A stretch of DNA of 64,000 nt from Amphiscolops sp. MND2022 (GCA_964187785.1 OZ076409.1:77874001-77938000); one strand, 5' to 3'; positions 5,001-53,009 are shown, numbered from the stretch's first letter. The notes: a model not told the origin generated them from the letters alone. Made by a program: numbers and translations.

Positions 5001-5004
5001 TTTC

Positions 5005-5015: not shown

Positions 5016-5101
5016 TGGTCACGTTTACCCTTATTTTCCTTTTCTCGAGTTGTTACATTTACGAATAGTGTTAAATCACTTTCATTGAAAGAGTGTAAAA
5101 G

Positions 5102-10602: not shown

Positions 10603-10679
10603 ACTTTCTCAGCACTGACGTTGACTCTCAAACTTTCCTCACCAAACTCTTATTTGCCTCCTGCAAATGGGGCCGGCCA

Positions 10680-24224: not shown

Positions 24225-25559
24225 TTGGGGGTGAGTAGGACAATGGACACTGAGTTTGAAGTGCTTTCTTGCCTTACGATCGTAGCACGATCAATGGAAA
24301 CACAGTTCTTTACAATTTCAAATGCTACTATACTCAATTTTCTGTCTCGAGACGCACCGCGTCCACTATCCACGTCTCCTAGAGAACTCCTAATTGCGTT
24401 CTAGCTCTCTCGCGTCACTTCTCAGTCGAGGCGAACGTGAATGCACCTATCAGTTCGCACTTGAGTGACCCTGGTGGCCGTTGGGAGAGAAAATACAATT
24501 TTTGTGTTTTTCACTCCTATGTCTCGTAGACAGCTTTTTGACAAACCCAAGATTTTAGGGTTGAGCTAGCTCCAGTCTGATTACTTCAATGGGACGTGCT
24601 ATGGATGCCTGCTGTAGAACTAGGGTCGTTTAAACCTTCACTCGCAACTACACCTACGAAAAGTGTATAATTTTTCGCAAAATTTCTCAAAATCGGCAAT
24701 TCTTTCGCCAAGGTGCACGCCTGGGGAAGGTGAAAATCACTTCTAGAGCTACTAGCGACCTGAAAAGATAACACGGTATACTACTGTGACCAAATCGTGG
24801 GAAATTCACCGCCGATTGCGCCACAATTGATTATACGTGACTTGGGGTTGCTTCAGAATGTTGTTTGAAGAATCGACTATGTTGTGAAAGACATTGGGGG
24901 TGAGTAGGACGAGGGACACTGAGTTTGAAGTGCTTTCTTGCCTTACAATCGTAGCAAAATCAGAAAAAGCGTTCTTTTTCAACTATGGTAGTTACTATAG
25001 CCTTTGTTGTTTTGTTTTGAGACGCACTGCGTACAAAGTCTAAACATCTAAAAGTGCCTATAAACGCGCTCCAGCACCCGTAGGGCCCGTAGGGCACTGA
25101 GTGTGCCTAATCTCAATGAATAGATTGCACTCAAGTGATTTTGATAGCTGTTGAGGGAAGAAACAAGGTTTTTGTGATTTTCGCTACTACGTCTCGTAGA
25201 CAGTTTTTCGACGAACCCAAGATCTTAGGGTTGGCCTGGCTCTATTCAAAGTGCTTCAACAGGGCGTGCTATGGGTGCCTGGTGTAGGAATAGGGTTGTG
25301 GGAGTCCTCACTTACGACTTCATTTACGAAAAGTATGTTACTTTTCGCAAAAGTTCCCAAAATCAGCAACTTTGTTGCCCAATTGCACGTCTGGGAAAGG
25401 TGAAAATCACTTCTAGAGCTGGTAGCGACCTGAAAGTTTAACACGGTATACTACTGAGGCCAAATCGTGGAAAACCCACTGCCGATTGCGCTAAAATTGA
25501 TTACACGTGACTTGGGGCCGCTTAAAAATGTTGTTACGAAAATCGACTATGTTGTGAAA
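24225..25559. repeat. Diverged ~670-bp tandem duplication inside the LTR element
   Basis: ttgggggtgagtaggac...gactatgttgtgaaa occurs at ~24225-24889 and ~24894-25559. Confidence 0.9.
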
Positions 25560-27410
25560 TTTACACAAGTCTGTCAAACTCGCCTTCTAGGCTTCCTAGC
25601 TACCTGAAATTTTGTATGCGAGCGTCAATTATGCCCACGTAATAGAAAAACAAAATAGCGGGGTGCCCAGGTCAATATTCCGCAATCCGAGTTGACAAAA
25701 CTATGATGTACCCTATTAGTCACTTCCTGGGGCCAAAATTCACAAAAATGTCAATTTCTCCAAATTGGACAGTAGCAAGCTGCTCAAAATGCACAAATCG
25801 TCGGGATCTAGTGCTGTGTGTACAAAAATGCAAAAATTTTAATGCTGGGATACTCCGAAGGTATTGCACTATGCTCAACTAAAATTAGATTTTTTTGACA
25901 GTTTCGTACAATTTTTGAGCAAAACTGCGGCTAAGATTTCTCGATCACTAGTAATGGTAGCGCTACGAAAATTACACCACTAACGTAACTTTTCGCGGTC
26001 TAGACGATGGTGCAATTCGTTTTGGGCTACTCCTGCTAGGAGAGATTTCGACCTGTCTCAGGAACACTACTTCAGTGTACCGATATTATCACTGAAATAA
26101 CACGTTTTTGGCTATTTCTCGGCAACCACTGGTTGGAATCACTCGCGGTTTTCTGCGTTTGCAACGTTATATACTCTATACTAACAGAAAATAAGCAAGC
26201 GAAACCTGGCAGGTTCCAAATAAGGTATCTCAAAATAAAGTTCATGTTACACCTTTTACACTCTGGGAACAATGTGAAAAATACGTATTTTCCCTAGGAA
26301 CTTTTTATTTCTCGGTTCCCATATGTTCGGGATGGTTCTAACAGTACAGTAGGAAGGTGTGACAACTTTCTTTAGGGGAGTGGGGTTATTTCAATTATTA
26401 CGTTTGATGTTATTACTCTCAGGTCTATGGGGTCCTCTACTCAGGTCTATGTATATCAAAGAAAATCAGAAGTTAAAGTGTCAATTTATGTTGGGGGGTG
26501 CTAAAAGTCGTCTTGGTAGTAGTGTTTCGTACTACCAAGCTCGGGAACAACGTTTTTGGGCTGATCTTAAAGCTTGGGAACAAGTGCTCAAGGCTTCGCC
26601 CTCACCAATTTTGGTCTTCTAGGCCAAAATTGATGTTTTCTCTATAAAAATCGCTAATTTTCTCAATGTTTCAACAATTTAGCCCAGCAAATTTTTCTGT
26701 TCCTGACCTAGCAGGTCTGATGGAACGTTGTTTTCGTATTCCCACTGGCCGTATCCTTTTCCACTAGATTTCAACTTTCAACACCTCAAAAATCGGTATT
26801 TGAGCTATATATGGTGTTGTTTTCAAGGTTTTCGCGCTCAAATTTTTGATTAACTGGTCCAAACACCCACAGGGTATTTTCCCCAGTTAATTTTAGTGGG
26901 AACAGGCCTGGGAATATGCTTTTTGGGCCGATTATTAGCAAGAATTAGCAATATAACCCGATTGACGTGGGTATACGGCAACTACAAGGGTACTGGAGGT
27001 GTGATGTCGGAGGTGCTCACACACTGTCGTCAGCTAATTGGGGTCTTCAGCACTCGTCCTCCCGGTCCCCATACATTGCTAGTTTACTGAAACGGAGCTA
27101 CAAAACCCTTTAAAACCAGTTCCGGATAGGCCGGATTAACATTTTCAACAGGTGTTATCAAAATACAAGGGATACACTGTCTGAAATCGTCGATTTTCGG
27201 TTTCAGACCTCGGAAATACGCAGGAAACGCAGGAATTCAGCTAGTAGAAAGCCTACCAGGCTTGACTAAGGCAATAAAAATAATCTAGGACTCTCTCCAA
27301 CAAATTTTCCTAGATCCAGACCTAGCAGGGCCGGAAAGCAGGAGAAACTCCAATTATGGCGAAAAGATGGAAAAATGTCCCTTGTGGGGCGCCATAAAAA
27401 CTATTCTAGA

Positions 27411-28127
27411 TGTAACGTCAACCACCTAGCAGAGTACATCATAGAAGCGGCACAATGCCTAGATTGCTTGAACAGGAGACCAGTGTCTTACTACAACCTA
27501 GACATTAGTTTTTAATCCCAAAATGGTCTCCTAAAAGGGACTTTTCCAATACGTCTAAGGAGTCTCCTCAGTTAGAGCTCCGAGGCGACGTTCTCAAAGT
27601 CCGGACACGTCCCACAAGCCTGTAAAAACAATTCTTAATGTTCCTGCGTGTTTCTACGTACCTCCGAGGTCCAAAAACAGGGGTTTAGCCAAAGTACATT
27701 CAATTAGTGAATAACGTCTAAACTGGGTGAAATAAGGGGTAAAACATCACCAAACACCTACAAAAACCGCAAATACGGTACAATAGATTCAGAAAACATC
27801 AGGCGTCAGTGTCAGCGAGCCTTGGTCTTGGACCTACTAGGTGGCACATGCAAAATATGCAAACTTCTGAGTTTCTTCATCTCTTGGGCCATTCTTCGGG
27901 TTCTGCTGGCAGCTGGGACGTCTTCCGAGGGAGATAGCACAACACGGCGATTTCGGGGATACTTCTGTGACGGTGTGTTCTCTCTTGGGTAGGGTGGGGG
28001 GTGTTTTGCACTATTTTATATCATCTTTTTCGATTTCCAGTACCTGTCAGGTCGGCCATCTTGATTTAGAAATTTTGCTATCGCACATTTCATCGAATTT
28101 TTGTGACGTCTTTTGCTGGACGTTACA
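27411..28127 (-). repeat. 5' LTR of the non-autonomous element
   Basis: Direct repeat of 22382-23106; PBS lies 16 nt downstream on the minus strand. Confidence 0.95.
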
Positions 28128-30055: not shown

Positions 30056-32574
30056 TGTCACAGCCCGCTCCCGGTCTGGCTTGTGGTTGCAGACGACTGA
30101 AGATCGAGAGAGGTCACGGAGGCAATCTGAGATTCCCCAAATCTTATTTTAACTGGTAACTTTAAAACCTTATCTTTGGAATAAACTGTGACTAAGAATA
30201 CGAAAACGAACGCCCAACTTACGAAAAGTTTAAACAAAAATGAGAACTGAAACTAAATTGAAATAAGATGATTTCACGCACATCCGGTAGGACGTCCTTA
30301 GTGCGCCAAAATAGAAACATTCGCCACCTGAAAATTAAATTAAAACACGCAGTGAAATAAAGACCATAGACCGATCTAAATGAAAATATACCCAAAATCA
30401 CCATTGGAAAAAGGAAATTATCTGAATCTAAAATAGAAACTACATTGAGATGACACACTGAGATATTCACTCCTTTTCTTTCTAAGAAAGGCAGCTTAAT
30501 TGCACTTTGAACAGCAATTAGTGCGGATTAGGACGTCGGCACTGCGCTAAGTAAACAAAATAAAGAATACATGTATATTAGATGTCGGTAAGAAGCAGAC
30601 TTGAAAGTATATAGTGTGACGTCACCGTTCCGTCCGCGCTCACTAGAGAACCATTCCAATTTACCGCCTATATTAGTGACACTACTTAAAATCATTCCAA
30701 TTTTCCGCCATAGTGACGTCACGGTGTTGTCTTCTAGGCGCGGACTAATTCTTACTTCAAATTTGCGTCCACGTTACGTCCACTATTCTGGACCAGGCCT
30801 AATACTAATACGTACGTCCACGGTACGTCCAAATTCCATCAAAACAAGCTGTTTTAATCCATCCAAAAGTTATGATGAATATCAATCAAACTAATTAGTG
30901 CTAGGAATACGTTTAAAGTGTTTGGTGATTTAACAAGACAATTAGTGGGGAATTTGAAGACCTACGCCACGTTTCCGTCAAACATTTCCTTTGCCGGGTT
31001 AATTCTGCTCTAAAACTTAAGTTGAAATGGAAATCCCCGTATAATGTAGGTGAAAGTCACAGTTTACGGGCATGACGAAAGTAAATCGATAGTATTTTCG
31101 TATTGGAAATGTATTTTCATATGTTTGTATTTTGTACTACATAAAGCGTGTGCTATTACCTTGTTGTGTTTAATTGGACGCCGGTACGTCGTCGTCCCCT
31201 AATCAGGATGGTCATTGCTTTAACCCCAATGTGCATAAATTCAGAATAAATGTTTGCGTTGCTATTGTACATTTTTGTAATGATTAAGATCTGATGATAA
31301 ACGGTTTTGAACTCTTACTTGTTCAGAAAATCCACAAAGTGCCGTTCTCACGTCGTCAAACTTTTTGTTCGAAATATTATTTTACGTGCAAGTTAAAATC
31401 TGTTGACAGAGTGTTATGTATATTCATCGGATGAATGCTAAAATAATATTAGTCAGCATTTGTGATTGAAATATTATTAAATTGGGGCAGAAGTCTGAAT
31501 TAGACAATTTAGTCTATCAAGCCATCAAGCGTCAATGTGTCGTTGTTTTATTTTGTTAACCATTAATTATTTAATTTGAAACTAATTTGAGGTTGTTGCT
31601 AATTCTTTAATCTTGATCTCATTCCTTCTTAGCATCATTGGAAATTACAGAGCTGAAAACATTAGTCATAGCATTTTTCTCGAGCGAAATATCAAAATTC
31701 AGGCATTAGTTGTTCATGCCGGCGTCACCTCAGCGTCAGTTTCTTACGAACCAAAGCAGCAAAACAGGGAAATATTTCCGGTTTGACAGACTGAAGTAAT
31801 ATCTACTTCCTGCTTGGGAGGAAACAAAAGGACGCCGAGCTGAAATGATATGATTACGGTTGATGACTAATGCTAGATTAGATTTGCCGTGTCTTAAAAT
31901 TTGACGGAATGTCGACGCAAAATTGGGAACAAAATGATTTTTGCACCAAAAATACAGGAAATGACTAATTATTCGAAGGAAATTAGGACTTAACTCGTGA
32001 TCAAATGATGCTAGGAGGGTATATATACGATGATTTTAGCTAACTAAGGGACTCAGTCTTTCGCAATTGTACAATTCAGTTGAATTTTCAATTTCACCAA
32101 AACCTTGCCTTGTTCTACTTTGTCAGAAAATATCTTTGAAAGAAATTCAATTCTTCAAGATCAAACTTTTCTACAAAATGTCAACAACAAGAAGCCAGAA
32201 AAGAAGGAACGATCAGCAAAGCACCAGTGAGAACGTAAGTGAAGGCTTGATTTCACCCATAGTAGTAGGAAATCCTTGTTCTTTAAACCAGGACGATGAG
32301 GTAGCGGGGCCTTCTAACCCAAAATCCCCCCGGATTGAAAACAGCCTCTTAGAAAGTTTAAGGGCTTCCTTGAAAGAGGAAATAACATCAGAGATTAAGA
32401 ATCTTCTTGTCGAATCTCAGAAGGAGATGTTGAAGCTCTTGAAACCTGAAACAAGGGGAAGTATTAGGGAGAATACTGAGGAAGAAGTAGAAGAGGAAAC
32501 TAGAAACTTTTATACTCCTACAAAATCAGTGAGAATAAGTTCAACTCAAAACGACCCGATAACATGTCGTAACA
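30056..32574 (+). repeat. Gypsy 5' LTR (2519 bp)
   Basis: Direct repeat of 44033-46547. Confidence 0.98.
32020..32057 (+). promoter_or_regulatory. Putative LTR core promoter (TATA plus Inr-like TCAGT)
   Basis: tatatata at 32020 (tataaata in the 3' LTR) and tcagt at 32053-32057, ~33 nt apart and ~120 nt upstream of the gag ATG. Confidence 0.65.
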
Positions 32575-33619
32575 TGGTGACAGGAGTCCTAACCGATTCC
32601 ACCAACCAGCCAAAAAGAACAAAAGCCAGATCTCAGAGCCAACCGCCGTCAAAAGAACGTCCAGTAGTGGCAAGGACTCTATTTGCAACAGATAAAAATG
32701 ATGGCACTACTCTGCCCATGCCAAAAGCACTCACGGCATCACTCCCGACCTTCGACGGGAAATCGGAAAAATTCGAGCTTTTCGAAGACCTTTTTCGCAA
32801 TAATATCAAAATGTACCCACACCTTACGGAAATCCAAAAAAAATAAACTATTTCCACTCCCTCCTCAGAGGAGATGCTTTACAAGCATTTTGTAATATCG
32901 AAGATACGAAAAAGGATTCCCTTGATGAAATCATGACGATTTTCAAACGACGTTTCGGAGATTATTTGTCCATGGCCAAGGCAAGATGGGAATGGGATGC
33001 GCTCAAATTCGATCCCTCGAACCAGAAACTCCACGAATTTCTGGATGTACTTCAAAAAACCGCCAAAGAAGCCTTCGGCTCTGAAGCCCAACAATTTATT
33101 GATAAGGCGATCTATGCAAAAATGCCAGACCACGTAAAGAAAATATTAAATAGGGCGTATCTTGAAGATAAACCCTACAACGACATCGTACTGCATCTAG
33201 AAAGGGAAATGAGACTTAACGGCCTCGGGGCGCCAGATGAAGTAAACCTGGTACCACTAAACAAAGTAGAACCAGCCCCACCAAACACTGAGCCCAAACT
33301 GGCCGACAACACGACGCAAAACACCAAGAAAGGGTATTGCTTCTACTGCAACAAATTCGGACACTACAAAGCGGAGTGTAGGAAAATGAAAAGAGATGAA
33401 TGGATGCAAACCAAGAGAAACAATGGCCAAGCCAGCAGCACTTCAGGCAAACCACTTAAATGTGACACGTGCGGCAAGCCCCACAAAACAGAAAATTGTT
33501 GGAATGGAGCCAATGCTGCCAACGATCCGCGTCCCAAGCGCCAAACTACACAGGAACAAAAAAGGGACACCCCAGACCAGTTGACAACAACCGACTTTGC
33601 TACCGAACCAAAAAACTAA
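32178..33619 (+). pseudogene. gag: Gypsy gag, starting inside the 5' LTR; frameshift in the A8 run at 32836-32843
   Basis: LPTFDGKSEKFELFE capsid-like start, continuing in another frame as INYFHSLLRGDALQ. Knuckles CFYCNKFGHYKAEC and CDTCGKPHKTENC. Confidence 0.92.
32575..32587 (+). promoter_or_regulatory. Primer binding site TGGTGACAGGAGT (tRNA-Leu-like), embedded in gag coding sequence
   Basis: Immediately follows the LTR-terminal CA; resembles the complement of tRNA-Leu 3' ends (TGGTGTCAGGAGT). Confidence 0.8.
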
Positions 33620-33685
33620 TTACGCCGCGCCTGCGTTTTGGGGAAAAAGTAGACGCGAGGGCGTATTCAACCGAAGATCCCCCCA
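33610..33685 (+). promoter_or_regulatory. -1 ribosomal frameshift signal (A AAA AAC plus downstream stem or pseudoknot)
   Basis: Heptamer at 33610-33616 directly before the gag TAA; pol is open in the -1 frame. Stem gcgttt/agacgc; loop gggga can pair with tcccc at ~33678. Confidence 0.8.
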
Positions 33686-36600
33686 CCACATATGTCAACA
33701 ACACAACGATTGAATGCAACGGCACACCGACAGAAGACTGGCTAAGACGACAAGCACTCGCTTCTATAAAAAGGCCATATCCACAAACTGAACAAGCAGA
33801 AACCTACACTCACGATAAAGATTACAGAGACAATCCTAAACAGCATGCAGATCTTCCCACCAAGCCACCCCTAATCAACAGAGAACTCTCCGTTACAAAC
33901 CAGTTCGAACAAAATGAAAACGCCCCCGACGACCATCTATCGTCACAACAGATTGAAGGAGATAACCACAACTCCTCCACAGCATTTCTGTCCACAGACG
34001 ATTTTCCCACATCACTCAACTCAATCAAGGAGTACGCAGCCGAAAAAGATGGGGAAACATACATACCCCTCCACTCCACCATAGTCCTCAAGAATAGAAG
34101 GAGACTGCTGTATTTGCCACTCGAATTCGGCGAGATAACAATGGATGGACTCGTCGACTCAGGCGCGTTCATCAACGCCATGTCCTGGTCAGACTACAAC
34201 GCGATCAAAATGAACAGCGATAGTTGCGTCATAAAAGAATATCCTCAACCACCCTTGAAGATTGAATGCGCAAACGCACAACTAGAGCAACCAATAGCCA
34301 CAGCGGACATTCAGTTCAACATCGGAACATACACTTTCACAGATACCTTCGTCATCTTATCGAAAACGTCATTTCCTATCATAGGAGTGAACTTCATGAG
34401 AAACCATCAAGCAGTGATTGACACTGCCAACGGAACCATCAATTTCCCGCACGTCGAAATGACGCTAGCCATGACAGACGAAATGAAAAAATGCAATCCG
34501 AAACCGCTCCAAATAATGGCAGAAGGAAACCAAACACTACCGCCACAACAAACAACAACAGTGAACGCAATAGTAATAACCACAAACATGAATGACGTCA
34601 CCGGCGCGGTACAACCACTACCACAATTTGATGAAACAACAACAATCATCGTCGCACCAGCACTAGCGACAGCCCACAACAAAAGGCTCAACATCCGAAT
34701 CGCCAACTTAACGGACTTCCCTCATACCATAAAGAATCACACAAAACTGGCAGAACTACAAATCCTCAAACCAGAGGACACGAAACAAATACGACCAATA
34801 GATGCCGCCGCACTCAAACTGCTAGAAGATCCTGACGACACCCACATGTACGTCAATGAACTCATGAAAGCCAACGAAACTGAACAGAATGACGAAAATT
34901 TCTGGTTTCCCACACCTGAGAATCCAGGAAACGAGGACGAGCATACGCCAATCCAGCGGCGAATATTGAAAGAAATCCGCGAACTCATCAAGAAAGAAGA
35001 ACTAGACCCAACAAAAGACAAAGAATCAAGAAAGAAATTCCTTGACATGTTCCAGTGGGAAGGCTCCCAAATCGAAGGAAATGACAGGAAACAACTTGAA
35101 CAAACAATAATCGAATACAATGACATCTTTGCGCGTCATCGACTTGACATTGGTATCAACAACAACTTCAAGGTTAAGCTAACCCCGAAGGATGAACGCC
35201 CAATCTACACACAAAGCCTACCAGTACCAATAAACTTGAAAGAAGACCTGACAGTTGAATTAGCACTAATGCACAGATACGGCATCATAACGACCCTGCC
35301 GTTTTCAAAATACGCGAGCCCAATTTTCGCCCAACGCAAACCAAACGGTAAATTGCGTCTACTTGTCGACCTGCGAAAAATAAACGCACCGATCTCAGAT
35401 GACTATATCAACAATAACCATCCAGTACCTTGTCAGACGCAGCTCAACACCTAGCTGGTAAAAAGCTGTTTTGCAAATTAGACTGCTCACAAGCATACCA
35501 CTGCTTACAAATGGCTGATCAAAGATCCATAGAAATGCTAGCATTCAACTTCGCAAGCAGGACGTTCGCCTACAAACGCCTAGCACAGGGACTGAGCAGA
35601 GCCTTATCAGCATTCTCAAGTTTCATGAGAGAATACCTAGACAAAGTGATCAAAGCAGACCAGTGCGCACAATACGTGGATGACATCGGGATTGCAGCCA
35701 ATTCAGTGACGCAGCTAATACGTAACATCCGAGCCGTTTTCGAGTGCATCAGACAAGCAGGACTTAAACTATCCATTGACAAATGCCATTTTGGAGTAAC
35801 TGAAGTCGAATTCCTTGGAAGAACGATCACTCCGCAAGGAATCGCCCCCCAAGATCATAAAATACAAAAATTCTTGGCAAATGTACGATTTCCGAAATCA
35901 AAAAAACAAGTACAAAGATACATCGGCTTTGTCAATTATTATCGCAACTACATCCCGCGACTATCTGAAAAATTACTCGGATTCTATGAGCTGCTGAAAG
36001 CAGATAAACAAATCAAAATCACTGAAGAGCTACTAGACCATTACAAGGCGATCAACGCAGCACTGTCGCAAGCCTGCGGATTGGCTCTCAAGCAACCAAT
36101 CACAGGACGACAATACGTCCTAATGACGGATGCCAGCTTTCGAGCCTCCGGCTATGCATTAATGATTGAAGAAGACAATGACAAAAAAATCAATTCCAAA
36201 AAGAAAACGTTCGCCCCAGTCGCATTCGGATCGAAAGTATTTTCCCCAGCTCAACTAAAAATGTCTATATATTGCAAAGAATTCTTGGCAATTTACCATG
36301 CATTTCTAGAATACAGCCACATACTGTGGGAAACGACGCTACCGACACTCGTAATGACCGATAATAGGTCAGTCACGCGTTTCTTCCAAACAAAAGCCAT
36401 ACCGCCTACGCTGTGGAACGCGTGTGACTAAGTGCTACAATTCAACTTTCACATAATGCACGTCGCTGGTACGCAAAACACTGCAGCCGATTTTCTATCA
36501 CGCATTGAACTTACCCCCAAAGAACGAGTTGAATTGAAAATAAGAGAGGACATTACAATCCGACCAATACAAGTCAACCTACAATCTACTGACGTCGCAG

Positions 36601-38549
36601 ATGAAGAACAAATTTTCTTCCTTCCAGATGAAACAATTGAAACCGAAGAAGAAATCTTCCTACAAAAAGAACAAGCAAGACAAAATGCGCGCGATGAAGA
36701 GACGACAAAAATAAAACTAGCCATAAAAGAAACAACACCAATCCCGATAAATAAAGCCTCCTACACCTTTGGGGCAATAAAAGAAGACGCACGCATCAGA
36801 GTAGAGCAAGACTCAAACCAAGTTTTCAAAGCAATCAAAAAGAATTTGATATGCGAAGAATATGACAAACACCTTTTACAAACTGACCCGACAGCAAAAC
36901 GTCTCCTAGTCCATGAAAACAGACTCATAGTCAAAGATGGAATACTCATGCGCAAATACTACGGAGAGTGCGGTCAGGTTACTCATCACCAAATACTAAT
37001 CCCTGAGCATTTGATTACTGAACTTCTGAAAGCACTCCATGGACAAATGGGAAAACACCCAGGGATCACAAAAATGATCCTAGAATGCAGATAAAAATAC
37101 TATTATCCCGGACTAGCAAAACGGATCAGACAATGGGTGATGCGATGCGAAGACTGCATCAAATACAAACGAATCAACAACAGTCAAATCAGACCGAAGA
37201 TGATCACCAATACAGAACACGTCCTAGGTCCGGAGGACATTCTCGAAATCGATATATTGCCGAACCTACCCAATTCTGCAGGATACCAAAACATTGTTAC
37301 GATGATTGACGTATTTTCACGCTACCTATTCGCATACCCAACACAGAATGTCACAGCGAAAACAATCGGACGCTGCATTGTCGACGTCATGACAAGACAC
37401 GCATACTTGCCAACACTGATATTATCGGATAAGGGATCTCAATTCCGATCAGAAGTCGTTGCAGAAATAACTCAGATACTCGAAATCCAGATTAGCCACG
37501 CGTCTACAAAACATGCACAAACAATCGGAATTTTGGAGAGAACTCATGCTTCAATCAAAACTGCCCTAAAAATATCGACGGGTGAAAGACGTTCAATGTG
37601 GCACAAATATGTCCAAATTGCAGTCATGAATTACAATACAACGTATCATGAAACACTAGGTTGTGAACCATCCACAGTATTCCGTGGACGTATACCCTAC
37701 AACGTTCTTGATTTAAAACTGGGCATCAAGCCAAAGTGGAAAACCACCCCTAACTCGGACATAGCAGAACAACTACAAAAACAAATCAACGAAGTGAGGG
37801 CGACAGCGAAGGACAACATCATGCTGTCTTATCTCAAATACAAAAAATATTACGACCGCAATGCGTCGGCAGCCCCGCTCAAAGTAAATGACTATTGCTA
37901 CATTCTGAACCCGAAAGCCGACAATCAGTCGACAAAGTTCGCGTTCCAAGATTGCATTTGGACAGGACCGTATATTGTGATAAAAGCACTATCAAATAAC
38001 AACTACACAATACGAAAACTTGGAACGAGATACACACAAACGCTACATAGAGTCCGAATACGACCTTACGTACCTGAACAACGCTTGCCTGACGTCACAG
38101 TACGAACCAACGACTACCTTCCTGATCCAGACGTTAAAATCTCACACAATGAATGGTATGCAGTATCATGGGAAATGGATTTTGGTAAACAGATTGATGA
38201 ACACGAAACATCAGAAAACACAAGAAACAACCATCACGCAGAAACACAAGAAGCGACAAATACAAATGACGAAGACGCAACGTCGCAAACGCCAAAAAAT
38301 TACATCGAAGATACAAATGACACAGCGCCGTTGTCTCCGGATTTTTCAAATCTTACAACAGACGTGGGGGATAACCCATACATACGACGCCCCCCACCCA
38401 TTGAAAGTCCACCTATTCCCCCAAGATCACCGCCTACAGCTGTCGAATACAACCCAAGAAAAATAGCAAAATACAATTTACGACCTAATCCTAAACCTAA
38501 CGCTAATCCTGACTTCAGACGACTTGACGCTATCACTACGACTCACTAA
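33616..38549 (+). pseudogene. pol: Gypsy pol (PR, RT, RNase H, IN) with one frameshift (~35428) and two nonsense codons (36429-36431, 37092-37094)
   Basis: LVDSGA, ASPIFAQRK...LRLLVDLRKIN, QYVDDI, MTDAS, H-H-C-C, EIDIL, SDKGSQF, GILERTH, WTGPY. Confidence 0.96.
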
Positions 38550-38854
38550 AAAGAAAACAGTATCACTAAGTGTCCAGACCGAACCGACCTGACAACTTTA
38601 ATTATTGGCATACTACGGCCTTTTTTTCTTCCCTTTTTCTGGATTTTTCTTTTTCTTTTTGACTCCAAATACTTCTATACTATTTTTTTTCTGCTGAGGA
38701 GCCATCTATCATCAACTAATTTCAATGCCAGCAAAATAAAATCATCAAACATACAGCAAATACAACCCGCTACATCAGGATGAACTATGGAACTACAAAG
38801 ACTACCACTAGAGTTTTCAAAATAACAGCAATATCAAAGTCTCAGTTAAAAGTT

Positions 38855-41800
38855 TCAATCGAGCTCTGACTTGGAACCCGGCCGTTTTCTAGACGGCTTT
38901 GAACTCTTCGTGGCATCCCTTTTCTGACTCTTCGCCGAATCCTTGACGACAAGCTTAGGGGAGGCCTCTTTCCGCACAGCTGACTCTTTACTAGTGGGTT
39001 TCGCCTCCTTCTTCTGTCCCAAAATAGCAGCTAATGCAGACTCAGCAGTATATGAGCGTTGTTTTGACGTCCCAACTTCAGAACCTGACTCTGAAGAAGC
39101 AACAGCAAATGAGGAACTCGGCAACACAGCACGAGGAGAATTACAGGCACTTGACTTGCCCGAACCACCTGAATCAGAGAACTGAACATGACGCGGCTGC
39201 CGATTCGCACTATGAAGCTGCTTAGTAGCCTCGCTCTTCTTGCAACTCAGATAAGCATCAAAAGCTGACGAATACTTCTGGACGAAAGATGAACGTTCGC
39301 CAATCGCCAAGCCCTCCCACGGATCAAAACCAGCACACGACATGAAATTGCGACTGCTAGCGATCGCATCACGAACACACTCCATCGTGCCTTGAGTGAA
39401 GAAAGCACCCTGTTTGTAATCAGGAGAGGACACATGACTCTGGACGCCCCTCAAACACGACATCACGACAGCAGCAGGAACAGCACAATCTTTCAAGTCA
39501 ATCTCAATATCAGGCATCTTCCTCTGAGGGCGATCTATCACCAAGCAGCATACTTTCAAGACTCGCACCAGACTCCTTCGCGACATAAAACTGTAATCAG
39601 AGAGCAAATAAACAGTAACATCTTTATTCTGTTCTGCGCTTCTCTCTGAGTCACGATGTCGCGTCCTAGCACTGACGACAAACGTAGCAAATTCCTCACG
39701 ACTAGTCAGGGCATCACTACTGGAAAGACAGCCACAACGGTCAAGCACACGAACCAGCCGAGAGAACAGCTGGAAGATATGGCGATCGTCCCCCTCTAGC
39801 AGCAACTCAGGACAGAAGCAATACAGACCCTGAAGGAAATCGGAGGACACGACCTGCTGACTCAAGATCACGTCAACCAAACGATCGACGAATTCCCGAC
39901 AGCGATTACGAAATTCGCACACCTCGCTGGTACTTGATCGATGCAACTCAGCTCCGAACTCATGATTGGTCAAGAAGTCGTCACTGCTAATCTTTTCAAA
40001 CGACTCCAATTTTGAAGAATCCATGTAAGATTCCCAATCGTCGAGAGGTGGCAGACTAGACAACTTGCGGCTACGGGTCAGCAAACAGTACACAAACTGG
40101 CATACTTCATTATACGCATGGAACGCGTAGTCAGCACGTCCAGACTTCTGCTTCTTGAAAGTGCAATGATCTAAACACAAGAGAAAACTAAGAACAAACT
40201 ATCGAAGACTACGTCACCTAGACGAAAACACGACAAAGTGACCACCATACTACACAACCTATCAAAGACTGGCCATACTAACGACGAAAGGGAAAAACCA
40301 AAAACAACTTACACAGATCAAGTACATGAAGCAACATCCCCAGTCGCAATTTGTTCGTCGTCTCGGAATAGACGAGCGTGTCAGTGCCCCGCATCTAAAT
40401 AACAACAGCAGAATGAATACCTAGCTCAACCGACCCAGTGACAATACTCTACCACAAGACTACAACTACCCCCGCGAAACAAAACATACCCACCTTATCG
40501 GACTCGCTCTTGATGTGTCGGGGACCCGTGTATCGGACGTACTCTCTGACAGTCTCCCAGATTGACATCAGCTCTGCCACGACCCCACGAAGCTCATCGA
40601 AGGCCACTTTTCCGGCAACTACACAGCGACGAAGTTCCGGCAAGTCTTCCATCCAGGGCTCCTGCAATGCACCGCGCAGACGCAGCATCAGGAAATCAAC
40701 CATGGTAGTGACTTCCAAAAGCCCAAAAATCTCCTGATGAGCCCAACGATAGCAATGGAGGAACACTTCTGGGGAGAACTCTCGGGCATACACAAAGCGA
40801 TGACCGTCGCTACGCTCGTCACTAAGCACCCGCAGAACTGAAGGACCAGTACCACGGACACTGATGGGGAAAGGAGATGAGGGCAGACTTGTGACAATAC
40901 GTGACAACGACGACAACTCTGATCGAGGCACTCGCTGACCCAAAGGCTCCACGTTGATGCAAATGTCCAGGAAAGTCTCCTCATCCCAAGTTTGCACGAA
41001 ACAATACTGGCCATCTGAACGCTCCTCAAATCGCACACTGTAGCAGTTGAAAGCTGTCACCCGGGAAGTGATGAAGCGCAACACCCGAGGAAACAAGGCA
41101 CGACAAATCAACGACTGAAACACAAATCCCTCAATCCACTTTACCAACCAACTATCTAAATACGACGACTACGTTACGTATACTACAGACTAATACTATA
41201 AAAACCTACTGACCAGTGTCTCAGGGCGATTCCAATGAAGACTATATAGAGGATTGTCAGGTCCCAGAGTAGCGCGAAAGTTGCCCCACAGTTTACGAAG
41301 CAAGACGTAGCTGCCGCCCCACCTACACAATTCAGCGACACAATTCACCATGGTGAGAAGAGGAATCGTCGAATCGACCCGAGTGCAAGCAGGCAACAAA
41401 TCTTCGGGGAAACTGAAACCCTCGTCTTTCTCGACTACGTCCTGACTGAGATACTCAGCCCGCTGCTCAGACGTCAACTCGAGAGGTTTCATCAGTTGAT
41501 CAAAGACTGGCATACCATGCTGCACTCGATATGCCACATCTCGTGTCCAATGGCGATCTCCGGAGAAATGACGAACGAACTCTCGTGCTCCACGAGACTG
41601 CATCGAAACATCGCGCTTACAGATCATACAGTGGAAACGCGATGCAGACCCGTTGCTGGCCCCACTGACGAACAAACTGAAGACTGGATGACTGCCCACC
41701 ATGTCCTTCCGCAAGTGATGACGACTGCTATATTTCCTGACAGGACTCTCACGCAGGGCGACAGCCTCCAGGCTACTCTCCATTCGGGACATGAGATCTT

Positions 41801-42994
41801 GCATCCCTATGTAACGACACAACTACGAACTAATACCACCCAAAACATGACTATAGCAACCGCACGACAACAGAAAATGCCCAAATGACGATTACGAAAC
41901 GTACCAATGAGAAAAGAAAGGAAAAGAGAAAACAATGAACACAATCATAATACAAATACTCACTCGCCAGAACAGGTCCAACTGCAGCACGTTCAACCTC
42001 CGGAATATCGCTAACTCCAGAGACGTCCTGAGCAGTACAATCACCAGAATCTACAAACAAAATCGATCCATACTCAAACTGTCATCACGACTCTCTAAGT
42101 TATGGTTACAAGAAAAGAAATCTTTATTACCGCTCACAGTCAGCTGAGCAAGCTGCAAGTTAGCCGTCTGGACGCGCACTTGTCGTTTTTTCTTGCCAGA
42201 AGACCCTGTCCCAGTTCTTTCAGCAGCAGTAGACGCGACTATAACATCAATATATTATACCAACGAAGATACAATCGTTAGAAGAAGAGAGGAAAGAGAA
42301 AGAAAAATGAAACACCAAAACTATCACACAATATAGACACCAAGATGATACTTCAAGCTTACCTCTCTTCCGCGATTCTGATTGCGCTAGGGCAGCACAA
42401 GTTTTTCCAAAACCCGGCAAGAAAGATGACAACCGAGGAGATCTGGAGGTCTGACTAAGGATCCCAGCTCTTGGAGTTGTCGCCCCGAAAACGTCATCAC
42501 CGCCCGCGGGGGGGATGTCATCTCGCCTCCGCAAGAAGAACCAACAGGTGGCTCAGGAAGAGTAATGCCAGGTTTTGACCTTGACACTTCAGGAGTCTCA
42601 GCACCACCAGAGACGGGAACAGAGGAAACACAAGGAGTACAAGCTGGACCCACTGAAGGGACCACACTAGAACTGACCGCAGGAGTGTCGTCCAAACCTA
42701 CGTCAGGAGGAGGAGGAGGTACCACCTTGGGCTCTGAAAGAAAAGTACAATCCCAACATCGACGCGTCAAGAAAAACTAAGCTGTGAAGATATGAAACAG
42801 AAAAGGCCTATCTGGAAGTAATATCATTCACTAAAGCTTAATGGATCAGGGAATAAAAAGTACTTACCAATTGCCCGCGAACGAACGTTGTCCGCGTCAC
42901 TATGACGCATTTCTCCCTCCGAAAACACGTACTGTGCCTCATGACCACTCTGGGCCCCAGGATCAGCAACAGAAGCAATTGGACGGGAGTCCAT
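38855..42994 (-). CDS. Spliced antisense accessory gene, 8 coding exons, ~1101 aa; C2H2 zinc finger plus hAT-transposase-like region; one 1-nt lesion at the G7 run 42508-42514
   Basis: Exons: 42994-42868, 42733-42363, 42238-42131, 42050-41964, 41806-41214, 41114-40494, 40394-40313, 40170-38855. Seven GT-AG introns (134, 124, 80, 157, 99, 99, 142 nt) with compatible phases (1,1,1,1,0,0,1) and T-rich acceptors. No internal stops. Confidence 0.82.
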
Positions 42995-43031
42995 CAAGAA
43001 ACAGCTGAGAATCTGAAAACAAACCCAAAAA

Positions 43032-43285
43032 TGACGTCATCATAACGGTGACAAAACTAAAGTTGGATGAGAACCAACGAAATTGACGTCGGCATAACGT
43101 CGGCAAAAGGTCATTAAGGTTAGAAAACTAATCATATGACCTACAATGACGTCATCATAACGGTGACAAAACAAAAGTTAGCTAAGCTAGCGAAAATGAC
43201 GTCAGCATAACGTTGACAAACTTGGCTGAACGGATTAATTCAATTTGCAGCCAATAAAAAACGACGTTGGCACAGCGTCAACACC
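43032..43285. promoter_or_regulatory. Array of five TGACGTCA-type ~24-bp repeats between divergent ORFs (putative bidirectional internal promoter)
   Basis: tgacgtc(a/g)(t/g)cataacg..(g/a)caaa at 43032, 43084, 43147, 43197, with a degenerate copy at 43262. CCAAT boxes at ~43251 and ~43319. Confidence 0.65.
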
Positions 43286-43437
43286 TGAAGATTAAAAAGG
43301 ATTAAAATGATTGTTTAACCAATCAGAATGGAGGGATTTATCCCAATATTCTCCTTAATCCTAATTAATCCCAAATTCATTGTGGAACAATTAAATACGA
43401 ACGACAGTTGCAAAAGGAAAGAAACCTCACAAAGAAG

Positions 43438-44130
43438 ATGAATAATCTACTAGATATATACGAATTGATCGACATCTCGTCGTCAAGCGAAGAGGAAGGT
43501 GAGATCACGAGGGCTTCTACCCCGCTACCTAGGGCCAACAAAGAATATCCCAGAATAATTGTCGAAATACTGAACTCATCTGCGGAAGCTACTGCAGATG
43601 AGGAAGAATTTCTCGACCTCTCTCTAGACTCCCTGGAAGCTGAATGCAAAAGAATGAAACTCAGCACGAGTTTCGAAACTGTGGAATCGGGTCAATACCC
43701 ACAGTCGGAAAGCCCCGAAGAAGAAGTAATGGCCGACTCTCCACAGAGCCCTGATGAGAGCTTGTCATCTGACATATTTGTTGTTGAACCCTCGGCAGAC
43801 GATAAAGAATCGACAACGAGCAGTAAAGTAGCAGAATATCTCGAACAAGTGCACCAGGAAGACGCCTCTTCTTACTTCAACACCCCGCCGGGAACGCCAA
43901 GGATGATAAATTTCTTGCAGGCAAGTCTTTTGAACGATTTGGAGAGGAGAGTACAGCCAGTCGCCACTACTCCGACAATTGCTTCACAGCTCAGAGCCCC
44001 GGGCAGAGTCAATCTTCCTACAAGAGCGGCCCTGTCACAGCCCGCTCCCGGTCTGGCTTGTGGTTGCAGACGACTGAAGATCGGGAGAGGTCACGGAGGC
44101 AATCTGAGATTCCCCAAATCTTTATTTTAA
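43438..44130 (+). CDS. Acidic, Ser/Glu-rich accessory ORF (230 aa) reading across the PPT into the 3' LTR
   Basis: Open from the ATG at 43438; low-complexity, probably disordered; no signal peptide or TM segment, so not env-like. Confidence 0.6.
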   Translation: MNNLLDIYELIDISSSSEEEGEITRASTPLPRANKEYPRIIVEILNSSAEATADEEEFLDLSLDSLEAECKRMKLSTSFETVESGQYPQSESPEEEVMADSPQSPDESLSSDIFVVEPSADDKESTTSSKVAEYLEQVHQEDASSYFNTPPGTPRMINFLQASLLNDLERRVQPVATTPTIASQLRAPGRVNLPTRAALSQPAPGLACGCRRLKIGRGHGGNLRFPKSLF

Positions 44131-46547
44131 CTGGTAACTTTAAAACCTTATCTTTGGAATAAACTGTGACTAAGAATACGAAAACGAACGCCCAACTTAC
44201 GAAAAGTTTAAACAAAAATGAGAACTTAAACTAAATTGAAATATATGATTTCACGCACATCCGGTAGGACGTCCTTAGTGCGACAAAATAGAAACATTCG
44301 CCACCTGAAAATTAAATTAAAACACGCAGTGAAATAAAGACCATAGACCGATCTAAATGAAAATATACCCAAAATCACCATTGGAAAAAGGACATTATCT
44401 GAATCTAAAATAGAAACTACATTGAGATGACACACTGAGATATTCACTCCTTTTCTAAGAAAGGCAGCTTAATTGCACTTTGAACAGCAATTAGTGCGGT
44501 TTAGGACGTCGGCACTGCGCTAAGTAAACAAAATAAAGAATACATGTATATTAGATGTCGGTAAGAAGCAGACTTGAAAGTATATAGTGTGACGTCACCG
44601 TTCCGTCCGCGCTCACTAGAGAACCATTCCAATTTACCGCCTATATTAGTGACACTACTTAAAATCATTCCAATTTTCCGCCATAGTGACGTCACGGTGT
44701 TGTCTTCTAGGCGCGGACTAATTCTTACTTCAAATTTGCGTCCACGTTACGTCCACTATTCTGGACCAGGCCTAATACTAATACGTACGTCCACGGTACG
44801 TCCAAATTCCATCAAAACAAGCTGTTTTAATCCATTCAAAAGTTATGATGAATATCAATCAAACTAATTAGTGCTAGGAATACGTTTAAAGTGTTTGGTG
44901 ATTTAACAAGACAATTAGTGGGGAATTTGAAGACCTACGCCACGTTTCCGTCAAACATTTCCTTTGCCGGGTTAATTCTGCTCTAAAACTTAAGTTGAAA
45001 TGGAAATCCCCGTATAATGTAGGTGAAAGTCACAGTTTACGGGCATGACGAAAGTAAATCGATAGTATTTTCGTTTTGGAAATGTATTTTCATATGTTTG
45101 TATTTTGTACTACATAAAGCGTGTGCTATTACCTTGTTGTGTTTAATTGGACGCCGGTACGTCGTCGTCCCCTAATCAGGATGGTCATTGCTTTAACCCC
45201 AATGTGCATAAATTCAGAATAAATGTTTGTGTTGCTATTGTACATTTTTGTAATGATTAAGATCTGATGATAAAAGGTTTTGAACTCTTACTTGTTCAGA
45301 AAATCCACAAAGTGCCGTTCTCACGTCGTCAAACTTTTTGTTCGAAATATTATTTTACGTGCAAGTTAAAATCTGTTGACAGAGTGTTATGTATATTCAT
45401 CGGATGAATGCTAAAAAAATATTAGTCAGCATTTGTGATTGAAATATTATTAAATTGGGGCAGAAGTCTGAATTAGACAATTTAGTCTATCAAGCCATCA
45501 AGCGTCAATGTGTCGTTGTTTTATTTTGTTAACCATTAATTATTTAATTTGAAACTAATTTGAGGTTGTTGCTAATTCTTTAATCTTGATCTCATTCCTT
45601 CTTAGCATCATTGGAAATTACAGAGCTGAAAACATTAGTCATAGCATTTTTCTCGAGCGAAATATCAAAATTCAGGCATTAGTTGTTCATGCCGGCGTCA
45701 CCTCAGCGTCAGTTTCTTACGAACCAAAGCAGCAAAACAGGGAAATATTTCCGGTTTGACAGACTGAAGTAATATCTACTTCCTGCTTGGGAGGAAACAA
45801 AAGGACGCCGAGCTGAAATAATATGATTACGGTTGATGACTAATGCTAGATTAGATTTGCCGTGTCTTAAAATTTGACGGAATGTCGACGCAAAATTGGG
45901 AACAAAATGATTTTTGCACCGAAAATACAGGAAATGACTAATTATTCGAAGGAAATTAGGACTTAACTCGTGATCAAATGATGCTAGGAGGGTATAAATA
46001 CGATGATTTTAGCTAACTAAGGGACTCAGTCTTTCGCAATTGTACAATTCAGTTGAATTTTCAATTTCACCAAAACCTTGCCTTGTTCTACTTTGTCAGA
46101 AAATATCTTTGAAAGAAATTCAATTCTTCAAGATCAAACTTTTCTACAAAATGTCAACAACAAGAAGCCAGAAAAGAAGGAACGATCAGCAAAGCACCAG
46201 TGAGAACGTAAGTGAAGGCTTGATTTCACCCATAGTAGTAGGAAATCCTTGTTCTTTAAACCAGGACGATGAGGTAGCGGGGCCTTCTAACCCAAAATCC
46301 CCCCGGATTGAAAACAGCCTCTTAGAAAGTTTAAGGGCTTCCTTGAAAGAGGAAATAACATCAGAGATTAAGAATCTTCTTGTCGAATCTCAGAAGGAGA
46401 TGTTGAAGCTCTTGAAACCTGAAACAAGGGGAAGTATTAGGGAGAATACTGAGGAAGAAGTAGAAGAGGAAACTAGAAACTTTTATACTCCTACAAAATC
46501 AGTGAGAATAAGTTCAACTCAAAACGACCCGATAACATGTCGTAACA
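44033..46547 (+). repeat. Gypsy 3' LTR (2515 bp), containing a duplicate of the first 132 gag codons (46151-46547)
   Basis: Direct repeat of 30056-32574, followed by TSD CTTAG. Confidence 0.98.
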
Positions 46548-47699: not shown

Positions 47700-49300
47700 C
47701 GAAACGACCCCTAAAATAGTAAAAAATGCAAAATTTTCCAATTTTTTGCAATTTTTGTCAAATTTTCGATAGATTTCGTGGCTTTGAATGTTGAAAACAA
47801 TCCAAAGAGAAGAAATTCATTATCCAAGAGGCTTTTTCAAAGAAACAAATGCACATTTTTATTGAAAATATGCCTTAAATTCAGACCAAAATTGACAAAA
47901 ATACTCGAAAATTCGAAAATTTTGAAAATTTTATGCAATTTTCGTCTATTTTTGCGAAAGACTTGGTGGCTTCCATTGTCAAAGAAGTTAAAAAAGATTT
48001 ATTGTCCGGCGGCTTCCTTGAAGAGATAAAAGCAATTGGTGTTGAAAAAATGCATCAAATTCGGACCGAAATTGACAAAAATACAAAAAATATCAAATTT
48101 TGGAAACTTTTATGCAGTTTTTGAAAGCCTTGGTGGCTTAAAATGTCTAGGACGTTCAAAAAGGAACACATTCGTTGTCGTGGAGGCTTCTTCGAAAAGA
48201 TATCAGCAATTGGTGTTGAAAAATGCATTAAATTCGGACCCAAATTGACAAAAATACAGTAAAATTCAAACTTTTCAAAATTTTATGCAGTTTTTGTGTA
48301 CTTTTCGAAAAACTTGGTGGCTTAGAATGTTTAAGACGTTCCAAAAGGAACAAATTTGTTGTCGTGGAGGCTTCTTTGAGAAGATAAAAGCAATTGGTTT
48401 TGAAAAAATGTATCAAGTTCAGACCGAAATTGACGAAAATACAAAAAAAATGATATTTTGAAAATTTTTTGCAGTTTTTGTGTACTTTTCGAAAACCTTG
48501 GTGGCTTAGAATGTTTAAGACGTTTCAAAAGGAACAAATTTGTTGTCGTGGAGTCTTCTTTGAGAAGATAAAAGCAATTGGTTTTGAAAAAATGTAAGAA
48601 GTTCAGACCGAAATTGACAAAAATACAAAAAAAATCAAAATTTTCGAAAATTTTATGCAATTTTTGTGTACTTTTTGAAAGACTTGGTAGCTTAGAAATT
48701 CAAAGACGTTCCACAAGGAACCAATTCTTTGTCAGAAAGGCTTTTGTTAAGAAATAAACAAAGTTTTCTAATGAAAAAACGCCCAATTTGTGACCAAAAA
48801 TGACACTTATTTGAAAATGTACCGATTCTTCACGTTTTCATGCAACTTTTTTCAGTTTCTAGTGATTTCAATGATCAAAACGTTAAAGGCGTTCAACCAC
48901 GAATGATTTCGTTGTCCAATAGGGTTGTTTGCGGAGATAAATGCAGTTTTGTAAAAAAAATTGCCACAAGGACCCTAAAATAGTCAAAATATCTTACTTT
49001 TTTTACAATTTTGTATTTTATAATGCAAAGTTTGTAAACGTTTCAACCTTTTCATGGATGCGAACTCTGAAACGATTCAACAAAAACTGAAGGCGTTTTG
49101 ATAGGTAGGCTTTTTGATAGGATAAGTGCCAGTTTCTTATAACAAACGTGCTTAAATTTGACTCAAAAATTGTCGAAAAGTCCAAAAATTTCAAATTAAT
49201 GTAGGTTCTTCTGTTATTTGAGTACAGTTTTTGAGAATTTGTTGGGTTAGATGGTTCAAAACAATCAAATCAGGTATGTAGTTTCCCTTCTTGATGAAAA
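47700..49300. repeat. ~184-bp tandem repeat array, degenerating toward both edges
   Basis: attgac anchor at 47891, 48071, 48244, 48429 and 48613 (spacing 173-185). More diverged units on either side; outer bounds approximate. Confidence 0.85.
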
Positions 49301-51204: not shown

Positions 51205-53009
51205 CCCAGGTTAACCATCATGGCTAATTCATGGATAATCATCCATGGTTCATCCATAATTCATGGATCGCAATGTCATGAATCATTCCATGATCTTGGA
51301 AAGAAATCCATGATTCATGGATGATTCATGGATGGAAACCCATGAATCATGGATGAAAATCCATGATGCCGAGGATGATCATCGATGCAAATTATTGAGA
51401 AGGTGCAGTTTTTGAACTGCCCGTTAAACTGAATACACTAGATTCGATGAATTATGAAAAGAATAATAAAATAAAATCTAGTTTTTGGATTGGTAAATTA
51501 CGAAATACCCTCAAAAATGAGAAGAGCACAAAGTAAGCGGATATCATATGATTGGACGTCTCTTCAAAGGAATAACTCCCATAACAAGATTACCTGAAAT
51601 AGAGAAATTATATTGAAAGATGTCGGACTTCATAGGTTCTCCGCAACCAGAGCTTGCCCAATTGTACCCAAGTCCTTATACTGTGTTTGTGAAGAGGCTC
51701 TCAGCTAGTGTGGTATTTCAACCACACATGACAGCACCCACGACGGGAACGTGGCCTCTATCGGGTCCCGAAAACTTTTACAAAATTAAAATACATCATC
51801 TGCAATTTTGAGATCTGAATAAGGCAAACAAAGTTTCCTAAAACAATGCCAATGAGATCTACATGATCTAGGATGAGATTTAAAAACCAACGCTGTTTGG
51901 ACAGAGCAGAAATAACGAATAGATCTGGAATGTATGAAGGATTCACATCTATTGATGAAAACAGTTTCCCGACTATTGGTCATCCCCGAAACACAATTAC
52001 CTAGAGAGATCATTTTGAAAGATGTCGGACTTTAAAGGTTCTCCGCAAGCAGAGCTTGTCGAATTGTACCTAAGTCCTTATACTGTGTTTGTGAAGAGAG
52101 GCTCTCAGCTAGTGTGGTATTTCAACCACACAAGACAGGACCCACGACGGAATTCAGAATTCAGTTCTAAATCGGACGATGCATTGATCTAGATACAAAC
52201 AAGAATAATTCTACTTTTTCTCTAAAATTGATCTGAAAAAAGACGTTTTGTAACAAGATTTCGCGAACAAAAAGACATGAAATCAACAAAACTACAGTAC
52301 AATGCATAAGTATTAGACCATATAATTGCAGAATTCAGTTCGAAATCGGACGCTGCATTGATCTAGATACAAACTAGAATAATTCTACATTTTCTCTAAA
52401 ATTTATCTGAAAAGAGACGTTTTGTAACAAGATTTCTCGAACAAAAAGACATGAAATCAACAAAACTACAGTACAATTCATAAGTATTAGACCATATAAT
52501 TGCAGACTTCGATCGAAATTGGACGATGCATTGATCTAGATACAACCTAGAATAAATCTACATTTTCTCTAAAACTGATCTGAAAAGAGGCGTTTTCCTG
52601 CAATTCCGTCAAAAACCATCCCCAAAACCATTGAAAACCCACCTAATGCTAACGAAAATCTTACCTATCTTGCGGCTTCAGTATGCGCGGTGCCGAAAAG
52701 CGCCCTTAATGGTACCCGGGTCATTAAGGTAACCCTGAAATTCCATTAATAGCGATAAACGACAATAAACAACAAATAAAGCTCCATTTCATGAGAACCG
52801 ACACACACAGAAAGTTTTGCCTACTTTGAACGAATTTTTCAACATGGCAAATCATGGATGAATCATGAATGACAATCATGGATGAAAATCCACGAAGCGT
52901 CACTCTGCCATGAATCATCGATGTTTTTCCATGAATAAGTATGTAATGTGTTTAAAAATCCATGATCATGGATGAATATCCATGAATTAGCCATGATGGT
53001 TAACCTGGG
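51205..53009. mobile_element. Non-autonomous TIR element with CCCAG...CTGGG ends (CACTA/CMC-like by terminal structure)
   Basis: Perfect 33-bp TIR cccaggttaaccatcatggctaattcatggata; many subterminal catgga/tccatg repeats; internal ~135-bp duplication (51613, 52015) and 174-bp tandem (52155, 52329, 52503). No clear TSD. Confidence 0.8.

Follow-up and report, generated by a model that had tools for sequence, protein, structure and literature searches.

In Amphiscolops sp., a Ty3/Gypsy lineage has as a fixed component an antisense gene predicted to encode a hAT-fold protein that lacks a complete catalytic triad

LTR retrotransposons contain conserved antisense open reading frames that have long been puzzling: both the origin and the function of these frames are stated to be unknown (PMC11963269). 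The stretch of DNA analysed here (the window, 64,000 nucleotides from Amphiscolops sp. MND2022, GCA_964187785.1 OZ076409.1:77874001-77938000) raises the same question: which protein is encoded antisense to the Gypsy element in this window, where does it come from, and what does it do? An earlier note, made from the sequence, had proposed that a retroelement captured a catalytically dead derivative of a hAT transposase as a DNA-binding accessory factor, and had placed it at 39500..41630. All the motifs listed there are found on the minus strand: a zinc finger, YSVRFEERSD, PISVRGTGPSVL, SLVRVLKVCCLVIDRP and LDLYHCTFKKQ, the latter read solely across the predicted exon 7/8 junction, 40313|40170. 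They do lie in this span; the gene itself is larger (42994-38855, eight predicted exons).

The host element, 16.5 kb long (30056-46547), houses the antisense gene between pol and the 3' LTR and has the features of Ty3/Gypsy elements: LTRs bounded by TG...CA, a target duplication, gag, and pol in the order PR-RT-RH-IN. The 5' LTR (30056..32574, plus strand, 2,519 bp) is directly preceded, and the 3' LTR (44033..46547, plus strand, 2,515 bp) directly followed, by the 5-bp target-site duplication CTTAG. As the LTRs are nearly identical (2,500 matches and 14 mismatches over 2,514 aligned sites) and CTTAG is present on both outer sides, the insertion is young. In the window copy, gag (32178..33619, plus strand) is spread over two frames, with Retrotrans_gag at E 0.002 and zf-CCHC at E 0.015, both under the Pfam cut-off. 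Pol (protease, RT, RNase H, integrase; 33466..38549, plus strand) is split into four open stretches, with RVT_1 at E 1.5e-20, RT_RNaseH at 1.2e-13 and rve at 2.6e-11; no chromodomain was detected by Pfam in the integrase stretch. The gag frame opens about 130 codons inside the 2.5-kb LTR (32178-32574) and continues beyond the end of the LTR and across the primer-binding site, TGGTGACAGGAG; every 3' LTR thus bears a truncated gag start. Immediately upstream of the antisense start, three repeats of about 47 nt with TGACGTCA (43025..43204), matched in 20/20 clade-A copies, are candidate promoter or binding sites.

Other repeats are visible around this element. A Bel/Pao element (4607-10979) has direct repeats at both ends and two long open frames at 5099-7153 and 7024-10602; Bel/Pao elements and spliceosomal introns are indicative of an animal. 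Two long direct repeats lie about 5 kb from each other (22382-27880); 97-99% identical and with no open frame above 155 codons in between, they are possibly a non-autonomous LTR element. Tandem arrays occur at 47733-48825, 52155-52596 and 15098-15386, with units of about 184, 174 and 44 nt, respectively. Elsewhere in the genome (G000:C3:9846522-9874435), three LTR ends at a spacing of 13,883 bases represent two tandem elements with a common LTR, and in one of 16 host flanks (L166), the sequence past the LTR end opens with a tRNA-like stretch containing GGTTCGAATC.

The antisense gene (38855..42994, minus strand) comprises about 1,100 codons in its eight predicted exons: 42994-42868, 42733-42363, 42238-42131, 42050-41964, 41806-41214, 41114-40494, 40394-40313 and 40170-38855. 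Exons 5-8 (about 870 codons) form the putatively hAT-derived body. Among 20 copies, donors 5, 6 and 7 are GT in 14/14, 19/19 and 19/19 of those with an anchorable site, and acceptors 6, 7 and 8 are AG in 17/18, 18/18 and 19/20; the count omits acceptors 3 and 5, which were set 1-2 nt off in it. Against L073 or L070, introns 5-7 of the window show an identity of just 47-71%, yet the splice sites are kept. In intronless relatives, the equivalents of exons 5 and 6 are joined exactly at the predicted junction. With these conserved splice sites, this junction and the dN/dS values given below, the antisense gene is more than a chance reading frame. The predicted exons 1-4 (41964..42994, minus strand), called from splice signals and partial conservation, are less certain than exons 5-8: they would encode a low-complexity N-terminal arm, which diverges fast, donor 1 is GT in 12/16 anchored copies, and exon 2 is out of frame in the window copy.

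Introns can survive retrotransposition here because the gene is antisense: the genomic RNA is the other strand. A sister Gypsy clade (L131-L142, P0051, P0152-P0185) carries the equivalent of exons 5-8 as a single open frame of 870-910 codons, without introns. In 10 of 15 database fragments, the match ends at the position of intron 5 and is followed by intron-like text, while 5/15 are without the motif. Three of those ten are distant lineages on the intronless clade's side of a tree that is midpoint-rooted, has no outgroup and carries a long-branch warning. This suggests, as a lead, that the intronless clade lost introns 5-7; a possible route is the copying of spliced mRNA into cDNA, which would explain the loss of three neighbouring introns.

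Within this Gypsy lineage, the gene is a fixed component that evolves under purifying selection. Between subfamilies, dN/dS is 0.03-0.27 (exons 5, 6 and 8; dS >1), compared with 0.010-0.023 for RT, in pairwise counts where dS is near saturation and several pairs are saturated. In a 99%-identical copy, the ratio is 0.67-0.91, in line with post-insertion decay. A search of the 1.07-Gb genome with exon 6 returned 6,572 first-look candidates, and all 150 that were scored are at least 56% identical. Gypsy pol lies downstream on the opposite strand in 44/44 loci (20/20, 12/12 and 12/12 by sampling round); as these were picked by the antisense gene, the count bears on its absence outside Gypsy and not on its presence in every element. 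Three clades are distinguished by how closely their RT matches that of the window: at about 94-98% identity (less in decayed copies), at 83-86%, with the same intron positions, and at 70-73%, with an intronless core. The RT tree and the antisense-protein tree show the same split of the first and third groups, with support of 100/100; the dividing branch measures 0.33 changes per site for RT vs. 2.0 for the antisense protein, which is about six times faster.

Among 1.84 billion representatives, 568 matched in a profile search at E<=0.001, and no named relative is present among those looked up (sets of 35, 79 and 10), all unnamed ENA proteins. P0136 and P0134 find best matches of just 35-40% identity in the window's genome; without a close match there, they indicate that further lineages exist, probably in other species. 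Rows with internal stops (exon 5 of L063, L068 and L079; exon 8 of L065 and L080; exon 6 of L072 and the corresponding part of L140) were excluded, as were alignments A2 and A5, in which mixed fragments are misaligned. Alignment A9, which was used for folding, has placement errors in all three of its rows for exon 7 and in a few leading residues of those for exons 6 and 8.

At the sequence level, no trace of a hAT origin is left. Pfam detected no PF05699, PF14291 or PF02892 in the window exons, eight homologs and the 35 members of alignment A8, so the profile checks suggested in the earlier note came out negative; PF14291 had no match anywhere in the genome search either. A DDE_Tnp_4 match in 1/35 A8 members, at E 0.15, was treated as noise. 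Sequence searches of the PDB gave no hAT match, hhalign against six hATs of the same genome a probability of 0.1-0.3%, and exon profiles against 50 hAT loci of this genome, mostly Ac-type, a best E of 0.33. In the ESM Atlas, exon 6 was without a usable match and exon 8 scored at most 0.78, and a word search for longer proteins containing exon 8 gave no hAT link. As a control, an ordinary hAT of the same genome was searched in this way and matched Hermes at E 1e-26. The genome's hAT transposons (L111-L116, L118) include copies with open frames of 496-697 codons and DDE-type motifs recognized by eye, and at least one Tip-like copy, L118, spread over two frames; Tip is one of the described hAT groups along with Ac and Buster (PMC3942097). 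By eye, FEERSD of the antisense protein resembles ADETSD of L118, the single copy compared; membership of the ZNF862-like or Tip group (DUF4371, 'DExxD') is tentative.

The hAT origin is supported, instead, by the predicted fold. The full-length model is that of P0051, an intronless homolog of 890 aa, and not of the window protein; it matches the window gene at E 1.4e-41 and is 28-37% identical to the window exons, of which exons 5, 6 and 8 have their matches in the intronless clade in the same order. In its AlphaFold2 model (pLDDT 83.5, pTM 0.71, no templates, 101-row alignment), a finger and a helical region are followed by a three-stranded meander with helix, strand and helix, then by some 300 helical residues and a C-terminal block. 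Among 350,542 PDB chains, Foldseek found 11 at E<=0.001; all of the ten top matches listed are Hermes (best E 2.1e-5, 559-636 columns, 11-13% identity), and the next listed fold has an E of 0.061. VIA, run on Foldseek's own candidates and thus a second look rather than an independent search, aligned residues 234-729 of the model to 133-609 of Hermes (Z 12.7-13.6, 386-402 residues, rmsd 5.1-5.5 Å), with the ISCth4 transposase as the runner-up (Z 7.0). A Z of 13 is near the chance level for helical proteins, although Hermes leads the runner-up by 6 Z. For exon 6 of the window itself, the model (pLDDT 86) likewise has Hermes as its first match in Foldseek, at E 0.017 and a probability of 0.97, short of the usual threshold. 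From these models, the hAT architecture, i.e., a finger, a dimerisation-like region, an RNase H core, a helical insertion and a C-terminal block, is predicted with high confidence, and the proposed derivation is supported by a structural comparison with Hermes of the kind that the earlier note had called for.

The zinc finger, C-x2-C-x16-H-x5-H (exon 5; 41550..41630, minus strand; C 41630, C 41621, H 41570, H 41552-41550), has all four CCHH ligands intact in 42/46 covering rows. It has no zf-BED match, just SF3a60_Prp9_C at E 0.039, pairs weakly in hhalign with the fingers of the genome's hATs and falls outside the VIA-aligned range. A helical region with conserved Arg/Lys, spanning intron 5, follows at the position of the hAT dimerisation domain (41049..41366, minus strand); VIA aligns its last part alone, from model residue 234, equivalent to Hermes 133. 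In the exon 6 model, the RNase H-like core (40815..41042, minus strand) is built of a three-stranded meander, a helix, strand 4 and a helix; YSVRFEERSD (41042-41013) and PISVRGTGPSVL (from 40868) are both read here on the minus strand. According to the P0051 model and VIA, an all-helical insertion domain extends over the end of exon 6, exon 7 and the first half of exon 8 (39575..40772, minus strand). An invariant Trp (40653..40655, minus strand), present in 35/35 rows of alignment A8 and 66/68 of A9, is, judging by its spacing, likely the counterpart of the Trp of the hAT 'TRW'. The C-terminal block (39431..39574, minus strand; SLVRVLKVCCLVIDRP at 39574-39527) matches the hAT C-terminal region, model residue 729 being aligned to Hermes 609. 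The Ser/Lys/Arg-rich disordered tail (38858..39178, minus strand), with 21 K+R and 26 S in 107 residues and a pLDDT <50 in the homolog, likely contains nuclear-localisation signals. Mean column conservation is 0.67 in the dimerisation-like region, 0.60 in the finger, 0.56 in the insertion domain and 0.48 in the RNase H core. With the finger and the dimerisation-like region best conserved, both carrying conserved Arg/Lys, and the core least, this profile suggests a transposase retained to bind DNA rather than to cut it.

The replacement of the catalytic D, D and E, read by eye in the earlier note, is also seen in the alignments. The Hermes positions are D180, D248 and E572, with W319 as the Trp; the corresponding registers were set by eye, without coordinates, from the predicted strands, the VIA end points, a printed Hermes alignment and the L118 motif. 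Site 1 (41025..41027, minus strand) is Glu in the window; Asp is found in 0/56 and 0/54 rows of two counts and Glu in 17/56 and 26/54, and the intronless clade has Gln, Arg, His, Lys, Leu or Gly in 33/33 covering rows. At site 2 (40848..40853, minus strand, two possible registers), the window reads Gly-Thr; Asp occupies 5/66 or 0/69 rows, depending on the register (2/70 and 0/70 in the second count), and Gly is present in 62/70. The four full-length rows with Asp at site 2 have Gln or Leu at site 1, and no full-length row has Asp at both. At site 3, Glu occurs in 3/37 rows; the region (P0051 model 687-707, pLDDT 91-95) is predicted as a loop or bridge, about seven residues shorter, where Hermes has its Glu helix. 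Two positions past site 3, an acidic residue (column 698) is conserved in 34/38 rows. With registers set by eye, the absence of a complete DDE triad in all clades sampled is supported, and cleavage activity is likely absent.

The marks of a hAT transposon, TIRs and an 8-bp duplication, are not found in the window, where the element has LTRs and a 5-bp duplication; the best inverted match flanking the gene is 13 nt, a length reached by 36.5% of shuffles. With 0/44 loci standing apart from Gypsy pol, this supports the proposal of a retroelement that retained a DNA-transposon protein. The antisense protein is built like a hAT transposase and is not a member of the working hAT transposases. It is highly probable that the three statements hold jointly: a fixed gene under selection, a hAT architecture and a likely loss of cleavage activity.

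The explanation preferred here, to which a probability of about 0.55 is given as a whole, is that a hAT-fold protein without a complete triad, likely nuclear and DNA-binding, keeps the element's own copies transcribed. Its gene would stem from a hAT element that landed between pol and the 3' LTR and was retained there while its termini and active site were lost. The protein would be translated from a spliced antisense mRNA, dimerise and bind the element DNA via the finger and the dimerisation region; once bound, it may open chromatin or recruit transcription factors in trans. The more specific proposal, a trans-acting activator that regulates the transcription of the element's own copies by binding DNA, is tentative, its chances being a little under even. 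It is the best guess over a cofactor of integration and over a repressor or decoy, because the finger and dimerisation-like region are best conserved, the tail is basic and there is a precedent for transposases activating cognate copies: they can be sequence-specific activators of such copies, and TnpA is derived from a transposase (10.64898/2026.08.24.746577). Against a purely regulatory role speaks the conservation of the whole insertion domain, beyond the need of DNA binding alone.

The mode of action would probably differ from that of VANC. CpG o/e is 0.87-1.08 in host and element DNA of the window, without depletion, and CpG transitions are just 1.3-fold higher (11 non-independent pairs); a demethylation mechanism is therefore unlikely, and the strict VANC analogy drawn earlier is weakened. 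Copies with a 56-60% identical protein share the window's upstream/U3 DNA at 80-92%, and those with a 75-84% identical protein align to it in parts alone. Protein and upstream/U3 DNA thus appear to diverge separately, which is not the tight protein-target co-evolution of VANC-like systems. Compared with window 42700-45300, L061-L080, L145 and L153 are mosaic elements, which suggests module exchange by recombination. The antisense-gene family has at least hundreds of copies in the genome. That a retrotransposon lineage domesticated a whole transposase as a spliced antisense transcription or anti-silencing factor, and that this module, swapped between backbones, underlies the expansion, is a possibility somewhat short of an even chance.

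Other roles can be weighed on the same observations. The dead-transposase scaffold may act at integration, where it would bind cDNA/LTR ends or chromatin and tether or import the integrase complex, replacing a chromodomain. The retention of the whole scaffold and of the invariant Trp and the integrase stretch devoid of a chromodomain by Pfam are consistent with this, and transposases bind element ends and target DNA. However, the 16 host flanks among 30 LTR ends have no common junction sequence, with short blastn matches at scattered distances, the copies are spread over contigs C1-C13, and a separate antisense transcript would uncouple the synthesis of the protein from that of Gag-Pol, so this role is unlikely. 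Slightly less likely is a negative or protective regulator, either controlling the element's own copy number like retroviral antisense proteins, or acting as a dominant-negative or decoy against host silencing factors or resident hAT transposases. Convergent antisense transcription and the hATs with long open frames resident in the genome point in this direction, and both the sixfold faster divergence of the protein between clades (2.0 vs. 0.33 for RT) and the apparent swapping of antisense modules between backbones are arms-race-like. The low dN/dS, on the contrary, gives no sign of positive selection (in pairwise counts, dS near saturation), and the protein has no sequence likeness to the sampled resident hATs.

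It is very improbable that the protein is still an enzyme, whether a transposase whose active site is non-canonical or a nuclease or recombinase that has been remodelled. The Glu in 26/54 rows at site 1 and the acidic column 698 make a remodelled metal site possible, and the invariant Trp fits as well; against this, site 1 is non-acidic throughout the intronless clade (33/33), site 2 is Gly in 62/70 rows, no Glu helix appears in the model, and no TIR rises above chance. As for a passive nested hAT insertion, carried without function, the window copy is indeed broken in exon 2, and nested insertions are described as common (PMC11963269). This reading is already largely refuted by dN/dS values of 0.03-0.27 at dS >1 and is extremely improbable: the splice sites are kept in introns 47-71% identical, and the gene is found across clades whose RTs differ by 30%.

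The regulator of the element's own transcription remains the preferred reading. If it is true, one class of mobile elements was domesticated by another, and the route from transposase to regulator through loss of catalysis would extend from hosts and DNA transposons to a retroelement owner (10.64898/2026.08.24.746577). It makes the testable prediction that the protein binds element DNA. For orphan ORFs of retrotransposons elsewhere, structure-based screening is suggested.

Among known proteins, Hermes and other hAT transposases (PDB 2BW3, 4D1Q, 8EDG) share with the antisense protein the predicted fold and the order of domains, over some 390-400 residues, an RNase H core into which a large helical domain is inserted and, putatively, the N-terminal C2H2 finger. 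The antisense protein differs by its incomplete DDE triad, the lack (by eye) of CxxH, the H-x5-H of its finger, an identity of 10-13%, and extra C-terminal helices and a basic tail. Its gene has no TIRs or 8-bp duplication and travels as retrotransposon cargo. The hAT scaffold has been reused for DNA binding in host-domesticated proteins, such as DAYSLEEPER/SLEEPER, ZBED and ZNF862. These are single-copy host genes, whereas the antisense gene is multicopy and owned by a mobile element.

Accessory genes common to unrelated types of transposable elements are exemplified by the plant mobile domain. Similarly, the ORF3s of bdelloid LTR retrotransposons encode GDSL esterases or DEDDy exonucleases whose catalytic residues are intact; such accessory genes are likewise common to unrelated element types, and none is described there as a DDE transposase (PMC5408684). 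Accessory proteins co-opted from host genes have been catalogued (PMC13547354). In full-text searches of the openly accessible literature, no LTR retrotransposon with a hAT-derived accessory gene was found among the entries listed.

The closest arrangement described is that of the plant Gypsy elements Retand, Grande and RIRE2, in which nearly all family members carry a conserved antisense ORF, TRP28, in the same pol-3' LTR interval (PMC11963269). TRP28 was proposed to be a DNA-binding regulator; according to that source, it has no similarity to other transposable elements and its origin is unknown, whereas here a hAT origin is traceable and the gene has introns. The TRP28 domain itself had no Pfam match in the window exons, 8 homologs and 35 A8 members. 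Spm TnpA and VANDAL VANC are transposon-encoded, like the antisense protein, and non-catalytic, as the latter likely is, and the sequence-specific regulation that they exert is what is proposed here; they differ in serving the DNA transposon of their origin and in acting on DNA methylation in plants (10.64898/2026.08.24.746577). TnpA keeps the DNA-binding domain alone, whereas here, in a genome without CpG depletion, the whole transposase body is kept by an element of another class.
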